DNA from: Deltaproteobacteria bacterium
GTDB taxonomy: Bacteria > Desulfobacterota > Syntrophobacteria > BM002
DNA: 64,000 nucleotides
Direction: 5' to 3'
Assembly (NCBI GenBank): GCA_022340745.1
Contig: JAJDNL010000239.1
Span: 155 to 64,154, forward strand
In this document: one piece after another, positions 57,663-64,000 of the stretch
How the letters are laid out: every line of letters begins with the position of its first letter
Numbering within the stretch: position 1 is the stretch's first letter
Position numbers and translations under genes: made by a program
Notes under the pieces: generated by a model
Databases searched by the model: none
Told to the model about the DNA's origin: nothing
The model's input: the letters and a program-made list of their open reading frames with translations, nothing else

Positions 57663-58082
57663 CCCGGAGAGATTTTAGATTTGTCCTGCGGACTCCCACC
57701 CTTCGGGCGGGTTCCCAGTTTTAGAATGCAGATTTCAGATTTAAAAGCTCAAGACCTTCTAGTGAAGAATGCATTCACCTCAATCTGCAATCTCCAATCT
57801 GCAATCATAAATCTAAAGAGACTGGCCCTGAGACCAGGTTTTCTACGACTAAATAAGATCTAATTCCCCCCACTCCCCCCATACAAAGTGGTAATTTATT
57901 TCCACTTTGTTACCTTTACTTCCCAAAAATTACCTCGCAGTTTTCCCATAAGATCTTTTTAACTATTTGGAATCGTAGAGAAATTTAAAAGATTGCCTTT
58001 TGGCACGGTCTTTGTTTATCAAGGCTTCACTGAGCAAATTAACTCATGCTGACGCCGACAAGGAATGGTACGAGAAGTCCGT

Positions 58083-61215: not shown

Positions 61216-61600
61216 AGTTGATCATCTGCTAAATACCAGACTCGATTGTTATATGGACTCAGCCCTAAAGAGTTATGTAAATTTTTTAGGAGGCATCAAT
61301 CGCTCTGAGTTTCAGGTAATTTCTGGATTAGGTTGTGGCTAACCCAAGACTTATTATCTACATTGCATAGCAGTTTGTCGAAATTTTATATAGCATACTT
61401 TAATCCACCGTGTACCGCTTGAGAACCAGATACCATATGGTGGAGCAACCAAACCATGCTCCAGCGCTCCTGGAAATTCCACCAAGACTAAGCTGCCAGC
61501 CGCTGACCAATTCTCGAGGGGTTAACGTCAGGAGCAGTAAAGAATCCGGGCCCATCGAAGATCCCGCTGTGCGTAAAAGGAGCCCAGCACTTTACGGTTT

Positions 61601-61678
61601 GTCCTGCGGACTCCCACCCTACGGGTGGGTTCCCGGTTTGTCCTGCGGACTCCCACCCTACGGGTGGGTTCCCAGTTT
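61601..61678. repeat. two tandem 39-bp hairpin units GTCCTGCGGACTCCCACCCTACGGGTGGGTTCCC(G/A)GTTT
   Basis: Each unit contains a CCCACCC-TACG-GGTGGG stem-loop. Related single units at 57683-57722, 37663-37700, 5128-5160 and, reverse-complemented, at 23936-23974. Confidence 0.7.
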
Positions 61679-61699
61679 GTCCTGCGGACCAGGTTTCCT

Positions 61700-61740
61700 A
61701 AAACTAAATAAGAAAGGGCAGTCCATCTGCAGACTGCCCT
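61700..61740 (-). terminator. rho-independent terminator of rplQ (bidirectional hairpin)
   Basis: GGGCAGTC-CATCTGCA-GACTGCCC stem 30 nt downstream of the rplQ stop, followed on the minus strand by TTTCTTATTTAGTTTT. Confidence 0.55.
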
Positions 61741-61768
61741 CTTTATGAGTCACCGTGGAAAAGAACTA

Positions 61769-62494
61769 CTACTTCTCGTCCTCGTCTTTGGCTTTCTTGG
61801 TCCTACCTTTTTTCTTTTTGGCAGTTTTTGTAGCTTTCTCTGACTCAGGCTCTGAGGCCTCTTCAGCTGCCGGGGCTTCGGCTTTCGCCTTTTTCGCGGG
61901 TTTACGCTTCTTCTTTTTCTCTTCGACAGCTTCCTCTGCTACCGCCTTTTCAGCTGCCGGTGCTTCGGCTTTCGCCTTTTTCGCGGGCTTACGCTTCTTC
62001 TTTTTCTGCTCGACAGCTTCCTCTGCTACCGCCTCTTCAGTTGCAGCTTCCTCCTCTACTATCTCCTCAACAGCCGGAGGTGCAGCCTCTACAGCTTTGC
62101 GGGGTTTGCGTTTCCTCTTCTTTTTCTTCTTTGCAGCTTCCCCGGTCATCAGCTCGATGAGACTCAATGGGGCACCATCACCAACCCGAAAACCTACTCT
62201 TACCATACGAGTGTAGCCGCCACTGCGGGCCTGATAACGCTGGGCCAGATCAGTAAATAATTTGTGAACCACCGCCTTATCTCGTATGACTTGGAGTGCC
62301 TGGCGTCTGGCGTGCAGATCTCCCCTTTTTCCCAAGGTTATCATCCAATCAGCCCAGCGCCGAAGCTCCTTGGCCTTGGCATGGGTGGTGTATATACGTT
62401 CGTGATCCAGCAGCGAAGTCACCATGTTGCGAAACATGGCCAACCGATGGCTGGAAGAGCGATTCAGCTTTCTCCCACTCTTGCCGTGTCGCAT
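61769..62494 (-). CDS. rplQ: 50S ribosomal protein L17 with long Lys/Ala/Glu-rich C-terminal extension
   Basis: N-terminal 120 aa are canonical L17 ([24 protein letters not shown]...). The C-terminal 120 aa are a low-complexity [19 protein letters not shown] repeat. rpoA-rplQ synteny. Confidence 0.9.
61864..62037. repeat. 87-bp direct tandem duplication inside the rplQ C-terminal extension (2 copies, about 95 percent identical)
   Basis: Copy 1 at 61864-61950 and copy 2 at 61951-62037 differ at about 4 positions. Encodes the repeated AVAEEAVE(Q/E)[19 protein letters not shown](K/E) 29-aa unit. Confidence 0.8.
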
Positions 62495-63502
62495 CTATTC
62501 CTGTTCCTTTCTCGCCTCTATTTCTTCCCTCGAGGGGAAGTTTTCTAACTTCATACCCAGCGACAAGCCCATTTCTGCCAGAATCTCTTTGATCTCATTG
62601 AGCGACTTGCGGCCAAAATTCTTTGTTTTTAGCATCTCCGCTTCGGTTTTCTGGACAAGTTCGCCAATCAGCCGGATATTGGCGTTCTTGAGACAATTTG
62701 CTGAACGTACTGACAATTCGAGCTCGTCCACCGAACGAAAGAGGTTGTCGTTCAGTTTCGGTTCCTCTACCTCTTCTTCGGGAGCTTCGATTTCTGGTTC
62801 CTCATCGAAGTTAATAAAGATGGCCATCTGCTCTTTCATAATCTTTGCAGCAAAAGCCAGAGCATCCTCTGGAAGCACACTGCCATCGGTCCAGATCTCC
62901 ATAGTCAACTTGTCGTAGTCCGTAATCTGGCCGACACGGGCCTGACTCACCACATAATTCACTTTGCGAATGGGAGAGAAGATAGCATCCATGGGAATGA
63001 CTCCAATGGCAGCATCCTCTTCCACATTGCGCTCAGCCGGAATGTAGCCCTTCCCGCTTTTGATCTGCATCTCCATCTGTAGCCTGCCGTCTTTTGACAA
63101 AGAGGCAATGTGTTGCTCTGGATTGAGAATTTCCACCTCGGGCGGACAGACAAAATCACCTGCCGTAACCGTGGCCTCACCTGCTTTGTCCACCGATATG
63201 GTCTTGGGCTCTTCTCCATGTAGTTTGAGCCTGACTTCTTTCAAGTTCAGGATAACATCGGTAACATCTTCCCGAACTCCGGCAATGGTGGAGAATTCAT
63301 GCAGGACCCCATCTATTTTCACCGAGCTGATCGCAGAACCTTGCAGCGATGACAGCAAGATGCGTCTCAGGGCGTTACCGATGGTAATGCCAAAGCCCCG
63401 CTCTAAAGGTTCGCAGGAGAATTTTCCGAAAAACCTAGAAGCGGTCTTTGCGTCCAGTTCCAAACGTTTTGGGCTGATCAATTCACGCCAATTTTTATGC
63501 AT
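62495..63502 (-). CDS. rpoA: DNA-directed RNA polymerase subunit alpha
   Basis: 335 aa; NTD ([23 protein letters not shown]) and CTD ([23 protein letters not shown]) signatures. Confidence 0.95.
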
Positions 63503-63589: not shown

Positions 63590-64000
63590 CTATTTGGAGT
63601 AGAGCTCCACAATGAGCTGCTCCTGAATAGGCATGGTCAACTCGTCGCGAGCCGGGTATCCCTTGATTGTCCCTTTGAACTTGTCCTTTTCTATCTCCAG
63701 CCACTGCGGCACTCCTCGTCTGGCTACGGCCTCCATTGCCTCTGCAATCGGAACAATATTTCTACTCTTCTCTTTCACCTCAACGGTGTCATTCTCTTTG
63801 ATGAGATAAGACGGAATGTTAACCCGCTTGCCGTTGACAACGAAGTGGTTGTGGCGCACCAACTGCCTCGCCTGAGCCCGGGAATTCGCAAAACCCATGC
63901 GGTAGACCACGTTGTCCAAACGCCGTTCCAGGAGAATGAGAAGGTTCGTGCCGGTAACCCCCTTCTGCCGCTCCGCCTTGTGAAAGTAGAAGCGAAATTG
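63590..64000 (-). CDS. rpsD: 30S ribosomal protein S4, C-terminal two-thirds (5' end beyond window end)
   Basis: ...[62 protein letters not shown]. The ORF continues to the window edge; rpsD-rpoA-rplQ order. Confidence 0.9.

Follow-up and report, generated by a model that had tools for sequence, protein, structure and literature searches.

A long, predicted disordered polyampholyte tail with a copy-number-variable 87-bp module on ribosomal protein bL17 of a Syntrophobacterales-type bacterium

Ribosomal protein bL17 encoded in the analyzed stretch of DNA (64,000 nucleotides, in the following referred to as the window) carries a C-terminal tail of 125 residues behind a canonical fold of 116. 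In our best explanation, this tail is a lineage-typical, predicted disordered and blocky extension hosting one polymorphic module; the tail would act as an rRNA anchor and as a brush on the ribosomal surface. We put the probability of this explanation as a whole at roughly 60%. Its descriptive part is very probable, and the rRNA-anchor and brush mechanism has about an even chance of being correct. The locus comprises the following features (positions within the window):

61769..62494, minus strand: rplQ coding sequence for the 241-aa bL17, from ATG to TAG (stop at 61769-61771), with Pfam and TIGR00059 matches
62147..62494, minus strand: canonical bL17 domain, residues 1-116, delimited by PF01196 (20-116), TIGR00059 (7-116), AlphaFold2 (AF2) and PDB chains
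61772..62146, minus strand: predicted disordered polyampholyte tail, residues 117-241 (125 aa), from composition, charge blocks and pLDDT
62096..62131, minus strand: first polybasic block, 12 residues (122-133), directly after the fold and the best-conserved element of the tail
62009..62086, minus strand: first acidic block, residues 137-162, net charge -10, its last 8 residues being the start of repeat unit 1
61946..62032, minus strand: repeat unit 1, residues 155-183 (29 aa), in codon register
61859..61945, minus strand: repeat unit 2, residues 184-212 (29 aa), in codon register, with 5/87 differences from unit 1
61772..61858, minus strand: C-terminal end of the tail with acidic SEPESE, a basic 12-residue block and an acidic DEDEK tip, alignable in relatives of as little as about 72% overall identity
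61713..61742, minus strand: hairpin with a 13-bp stem and a T-rich stretch behind it, located 27 nt past the rplQ stop and likely the intrinsic terminator of the operon
62495..63502, minus strand: rpoA (335 aa), the upstream alpha-operon gene, taken from the ORF list as context only
63590-63919, minus strand: rpsD, upstream of rpoA

The identity of the gene was assessed by profile, structure and context. Pfam Ribosomal_L17 (PF01196) matched residues 20-116 (E 6.7e-38, 129.9 bits, cut-off 27) and TIGR00059 residues 7-116 (143 bits, cut-off 70.05). The bL17 chains of the PDB align to residues 1-116, and the core helices reach an AF2 pLDDT of about 70-88. As expected for bL17, rplQ closes the alpha operon, coming immediately after rpoA, and the order rpsD-rpoA-rplQ is the same in related contigs. 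Best genome matches were Syntrophobacterales MAGs (L002 with 96% and L001 with 87% over the best segment), followed by Desulfobacterales and Geobacteraceae. Since the domain matches, the gene order and these best matches agree, 61769..62494 can be read as the normal rplQ of a Syntrophobacterales-type bacterium (Desulfobacterota). The initial annotation had named the gene and placed the end of its fold near residue 120, which is in line with domain profiles stopping at residue 116. It had also allowed for a mis-read in-frame stop that would end the protein at about 120 aa; this can be dismissed, as the ORF is open from ATG to TAG over 241 codons with zero internal stops. The tail is hence real and in frame, extending 125 aa beyond the domain end at residue 116.

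Several further observations concern the surroundings of the gene. At 62492-62497 the rpoA TAG abuts the rplQ ATG (TAGATG on the minus strand), and an AGGAA-type Shine-Dalgarno-like sequence lies within the end of rpoA ahead of rplQ; together, these suggest translational coupling of the two genes. The hairpin at 61713..61742 is a plausible, and likely the actual, intrinsic terminator of the operon. An array of the 39-bp element CGGTTTGTCCTGCGGACTCCCACCCTACGGGTGGGTTCC starts about 25 nt past this hairpin and occupies 61595-61689. It forms a CCCACCC/GGGTGGG hairpin and is present in 2.4 tandem copies, the two full ones being identical. A third, diverged copy (3 mismatches) was found at 57679-57715, 3.9 kb away, and the near-identical contig L161 apparently has fewer tandem copies. 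The element looks like a REP-like intergenic repeat; an Rfam scan of the whole window at gathering threshold gave no matches, this element included. An antisense ORF on the plus strand (61755..62216, 153 aa) was rejected as a gene candidate: its F/S/A-rich composition mirrors the Lys/Glu/Ala codons of rplQ on the opposite strand, and it is without family support.

Two detection methods agree on the repeat within the tail. Tandem Repeats Finder reported a period of 87 (61857-62044, 2.2 copies, score 334), and a pairwise repeat search aligned 61857-61943 with 61944-62030 at 94%. In codon register, the two units are identical at 82 of 87 positions (94.3%), with three synonymous and two replacement differences (Q/E and K/E). 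The 87-bp tandem duplication noticed initially, with copies placed at 61864-61950 and 61951-62037 and an identity of about 95%, is therefore the same array with its register shifted by a few bases. Each 29-residue module consists of an acidic AVAEEAVE stretch, a basic 13-residue block and a terminal EAPAAE. The tail had further been described as made of repeats throughout. Two 29-residue units are indeed present; however, these account for just 58 of the 125 tail residues, the rest of the tail being similar in composition without consisting of unit copies.

Short-read assemblies classically go wrong at tandem repeats, and an expanded or collapsed repeat had been named from the outset as a finding that would undo the reading. 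This concern is not borne out. The identical 241-aa protein, deposited as P0001 in the public protein collection, is encoded on an ENA k141 contig of a non-identical strain, as evidenced by 13 mismatches in 1449 flanking bases (99.1%; compared from the rpoA 3' end through rplQ and just past it), and again on an independently assembled Logan contig. Furthermore, the five mismatches between the units keep the longest exact run common to both below 31 nt, so that short-read assemblers can resolve them, and two units also occur in 36 related proteins from many samples. The probability that the two-unit state is an assembly artefact is practically negligible.

The number of units was compared across 113 close relatives, defined as proteins with at least 93% core identity. 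One unit (three basic blocks) was found in 73 of these and two units (four basic blocks) in 36; the window represents a two-unit allele. Three full units are encoded by L081, a JGI metagenome contig, resulting in a protein of 278 aa. The metagenome scan provided close relatives only with L081-L083, most other hits being distant, and further DNA of close relatives was obtained from contigs encoding related proteins. In a neighbor-joining tree of 748 nt (rpoA 3' end and rplQ core), one-unit and two-unit alleles are interleaved. Over these 748 nt, 0.1% separates contig L166 (one unit) from L167 (two units), and 0.7% separates L168 (two units) from L081 (three units). Consequently, the repeat-number polymorphism predicted by the initial annotation is real, with one, two and three units among close relatives and between strains 0.1-1% apart. 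With a unit of 87 bp (29 codons) and a copy number variable in relatives, the array is a polymorphic coding tandem repeat.

The mismatch matrix between individual units points to events of different age. Within the clade of L168, L165 and L081, the first units group together and so do the second ones, which marks them as old, orthologous pairs. In L081, units 2 and 3 differ at only 2 of 87 positions. The single unit of L166 likewise differs at 2/87 from unit 2 of L167, whose own two units differ from each other at 10/87, which argues for a recent loss or a recombinational gain. Judged from these distances, the differences between L081 units 2 and 3 and between L166 and L167 reflect very recent events. 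For the window and L164, mismatches amount to 5 and 4 between units within the genomes and to 8 and 8 between the genomes, a pattern that would fit independent duplications or homogenization. Contig L165 (ENA ERZ27250355) shows a variation on the theme: two full units and the start of a third are fused directly to the terminal KKKKKKAKTKK block, the tail having lost a 10-residue segment by an in-frame deletion. This allele indicates that recombination between basic blocks occurs as well. The unit number likely shifts through slipped-strand mispairing or through unequal recombination of one 87-bp unit with another. The description of the duplication in the window as recent holds only in relative terms. 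Its copies have diverged at 3 of about 20 synonymous sites, comparable to the core dS of about 0.13 that separates this gene from its nearest sequenced relatives, so the duplication would be recent only on the scale of species-level divergence. Homogenization may account for part of the similarity of the units within this genome.

In order to place the tail in its lineage, rplQ was translated in 159 related loci from genome and metagenome scans, yielding 153 complete Desulfobacterota-type proteins. Their median length is 192 aa, and 72 of them reach at least 200 aa. In cultured relatives, L17 measures 213 aa (Desulfatitalea alkaliphila), 183 aa (Desulfosarcina cetonica) and 176 aa (Geomobilimonas luticola). 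Tail lengths range from 7 to 157 aa, meaning that the ribosome as such can do without a long tail. In 98 proteins the tail measures 50 aa or more; in 82 of these a polybasic run directly follows the fold, and the remainder of the tail past this head is net acidic in 76% of the long tails. This length comparison, proposed as a check by the initial annotation, hence revealed long tails to be common, and a long charged tail on L17 appears lineage-typical and the norm among the nearest relatives. It also contradicts the claim that the tail was created by the tandem duplication: one-unit relatives of the window clade already have tails of 95-103 aa, the extra unit adds only 29 of 125 residues, and long charged tails occur throughout neighboring Desulfobacterota.

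Other lineages show expansions of their own at the same position of the tail. Contigs L024 and L096 carry tandem repeats of about 16 residues that resemble KAKKDDTAAEVPKAKAT and are unrelated to the 87-bp unit, and independent expansions were observed for L034 (EEASTVV repeats) and L150 (AAEEAPAEE repeats). As unrelated repeats have expanded there, slippage-driven growth of the L17 terminus is recurrent. A separate observation was made for Geobacteraceae-type L17s (L037, L048, L062, L076, L080, L137, and L139), whose varied tails have the common end C-E-A-K/S-A-D; L099 ends with the variant CEGKAD. This end could be a short linear motif, or else a modification or metal site.

In terms of composition, the tail comprises 41 K/R, 28 D/E, 30 Ala, and 8 Pro, giving a net charge of +13 (+0.10 per residue) and a charged fraction of 0.55. 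Basic and acidic blocks alternate along the tail: a basic block of 12 aa, an acidic Ala/Glu/Val stretch of 26 aa (net -10), a basic block of 13 aa and a further acidic stretch are followed by the second copy of the 13-aa basic block, the acidic SEPESE, a basic block of 12 aa, and the acidic DEDEK tip. This segregation corresponds to a kappa of 0.48 compared with 0.16 +/- 0.04 in 1000 shuffles (maximum 0.315), calculated with our own, approximate implementation of the Das-Pappu kappa. Residues 120-241 reached AF2 pLDDT values of 32-47 and are devoid of secondary structure in a model built from a 40-sequence alignment, and the tail is thus predicted to be intrinsically disordered. With predicted disorder, a charged fraction above ~0.35, a net positive charge, and a charge segregation well above random, the tail has the properties of a disordered region of the blocky strong-polyampholyte type. 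A scan of all ORFs of the window for charged low-complexity sequence returned only the L17 tail and an ordinary helical protein at 1950-2516. Sequence searches with the tail yielded little: phmmer against 1.84 billion representatives gave 0 matches and missed even the query's own cluster, presumably due to composition-bias correction, which makes this outcome uninformative and no sign of uniqueness; the tail alone against the PDB gave one non-significant match to a portal protein; and Pfam matches past the L17 domain were noise, leaving the tail without a family match.

The term histone-H1-like, under which the tail was first described, suits its basic blocks, with a 13-residue basic motif present twice and a 12-residue motif once, in the manner of short K/A/P repeat motifs. 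It does not suit the whole tail. H1 and PAKKA tails are strongly basic with few acidic residues, whereas here 41 K/R are accompanied by 28 D/E in alternating blocks. The tail as a whole is a blocky strong polyampholyte and not simply H1-like.

Conservation of the tail was examined in an alignment of 40 proteins (A1, 71-94% overall identity). The block order and the C-terminal KKKKxKTKK-DKExDEK end (KKKKGKTKK in its more specific form) are kept down to about 72% overall identity, and K123, K128, and K133 are invariant. Among ten close relatives all length differences are in frame, and dN/dS values (Nei-Gojobori) range from 0.15 to 0.35 for the tail, omitting one near-identical pair with too few changes, compared with 0-0.11 for the core. 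The tail is under relaxed purifying selection. These data bear on the alternative that it is neutral low-complexity sequence without a role of its own, sized by replication slippage on a tolerant, solvent-exposed C-terminus. Neutrality would accommodate that near-identical strains often gain or lose the 87-bp unit, as well as the span of 7 to 157 aa across related taxa, the variable net charge with its K/E flips described below, and the entirely different repeats of L024/L096, L034, and L150 at the same position. On the other hand, a dN/dS clearly below 1, the frame being kept in every case, the conserved block order and C-terminal end, the polybasic head in 82 of 98 long tails, and a charge segregation far above random speak against it. 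We regard a tail without any role as a serious possibility, though an unlikely one.

Selection on the exact charge pattern was considered in addition and dropped. Close relatives have tails with net charges between +2 and +13, the charged fraction being nearly constant (0.50-0.58). Changes of charge class occurred in 45% of variable tail columns versus 55% expected, and K/E flips of sign in 22% versus 7% expected for random replacements, with column counts over ten related sequences set against a per-mutation expectation. Charge-class conservation is accordingly weak to negative and flips are commoner than expected, which, together with the variable net charge, argues against a precisely tuned electrostatic function. 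The suggestion that copy number would change the charge of the protein holds insofar as each unit contributes +2 to +5. Since relatives already span +2 to +13, however, fine charge tuning via unit number is unlikely.

The mechanistic part of our preferred explanation starts from the location of the protein. On the 50S subunit, bL17 occupies a solvent-side position along the periphery of the tunnel-exit face, or vestibule (PMC12752688), which agrees with the exit-tunnel region assumed in the first description. From the C-terminus of bL17, the tail would leave the solvent-side surface at the periphery of this face. By analogy to extensions of other ribosomal proteins, the polybasic block beside the fold may bind the rRNA backbone electrostatically and serve as anchor. 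The acidic blocks interspersed in the tail would screen the other basic ones and keep the free protein soluble, all blocks beyond the anchor forming a self-shielding, soluble polyampholyte brush. In such an arrangement exact length and net charge would matter little and the number of modules would largely be tolerated, with charge density and blockiness being retained.

A different role is implied by the H1-like reading, close to that of the first description, in which the tail would confer an extraribosomal, nucleoid- or DNA-binding function on bL17. Streptomyces TopA (PMC5714199) and M. smegmatis Ku (PMC3553676) likewise carry low-complexity K/A/P repeats C-terminal to a nucleic-acid-binding fold, and these PAKKA/AKKA-type tails share with the window tail the lineage-specific occurrence and the variable repeat number. 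The 13-residue basic blocks resemble the K/A/P repeats that enhance DNA binding in these actinobacterial proteins, and an older report on B. subtilis bL17, cited in PMC10931766, described a preference for curved DNA and perturbed nucleoids upon overproduction. However, the TopA and Ku tails are overwhelmingly basic and bind DNA; the window tail interleaves 28 acidic residues with its basic blocks, unlike H1 or PAKKA tails, and is located on an rRNA-bound protein. The lysine tails of TopA and Ku would accordingly be functional analogues of its basic blocks only. Furthermore, rplQ is a single gene in standard operon position with a core dN/dS near 0. We consider an H1-like function improbable.

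Another comparison is offered by the KKE/D domains of the snoRNP proteins Nop56, Nop58, and Cbf5 (PMC11528048), which are terminal strong polyampholytes on rRNA-tied proteins, net positive and built from alternating K and E/D blocks. The charged fraction of 0.55, the +0.10 per residue and the kappa of 0.48 match their published description, and repeat modules added to the L17 tail would raise its valency. Along this line, the tail might mediate multivalent self- or RNA association, leading to ribosome clustering, hibernation, or a concentration of bL17 near nascent rRNA. Against this stands a likeness in composition only, homology being absent, as well as the low valency of one tail per ribosome, though ribosomes are abundant. 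KKE/D domains are moreover eukaryotic and nucleolar and have been functionally tested; their blocks are lysine doublets spaced by acidic residues, compared with K5-6 runs separated by Ala/Glu/Val spacers of 13-26 residues in the window. A role in association of this kind is very improbable. The more specific idea of a bacterial counterpart of KKE/D-type nucleolar disordered regions, i.e., a valency module for self-association or RNA coacervation that is tunable by repeat number, is by this analogy a long shot. If true, it would bear on ribosome clustering, dormancy, or local enrichment where rRNA is made in the slow-growing, syntrophic Desulfobacterota.

Extended bL17 as such is already a known kind, since ribosomes in the PDB contain bL17 chains of 160-199 aa (5o60_O, 5v7q_N, 8crx_m, 9e0n_O, 9qt5_N, 7jil_N, and 9i5t_Q). 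Lengths are 199 aa for 5o60_O, 180 aa for 5v7q_N, 187 aa for 8crx_m, and 163 aa for 7jil_N, which we take to be from Mycobacterium smegmatis, M. tuberculosis, Cutibacterium acnes, and Flavobacterium johnsoniae, respectively. As in the window, their low-complexity Ala/Glu/Lys/Pro-rich extension starts right after the fold (~residue 117), often as a short basic stretch that gives way to an acidic Ala-rich one, the alignment being one by composition. In contrast to the window, these tails measure 40-80 aa, and the aligned ones are without repeated K5-6 blocks or a 29-residue module. In the literature searched, we found no copy-number polymorphism for extended bL17 tails of this type. A long C-terminal addition to L17 also defines NCBIfam NF051448 (L17, sunset domain variant). 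Membership was rejected, as the window L17 reaches 146.9 bits where 280 are required and covers only profile positions 4-177 of 229. The added domain (positions about 178-229, the last ~50) is unmatched. Four diverse relatives also fall below the cut-off with 144-168 bits, and a literature search on “sunset domain” returned nothing relevant. The H1-like extensions of mosquito RpS6 and RpL23a, cited in PMC11764897, share the lysine-rich low-complexity terminus and an independent origin in a single lineage; they are found on other, eukaryotic proteins and, according to titles and abstract, are devoid of alternating acidic blocks. Papers on Desulfobacterota L17 tails or on their repeat polymorphism were not found in the literature searched, where absence is not proof.

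As it stands, the tail is a case of ordinary low-complexity evolution on a solvent-exposed terminus. Nevertheless, it shows that a universal ribosomal protein routinely carries a fold-sized tail across a major anaerobic lineage, and that one module of this tail is a natural in-frame copy-number polymorphism. With regard to genome annotation, L17 proteins of such length are neither fusions nor errors. The tail must be trimmed for marker-gene phylogenies, and the number of L17 units is usable for strain typing in metagenomes. If the tail acts on the exit side of the 50S surface or in ribosome self-association, alleles with one, two, and three modules would provide a natural series in which to test the effect of charged disordered extensions on bacterial ribosomes.
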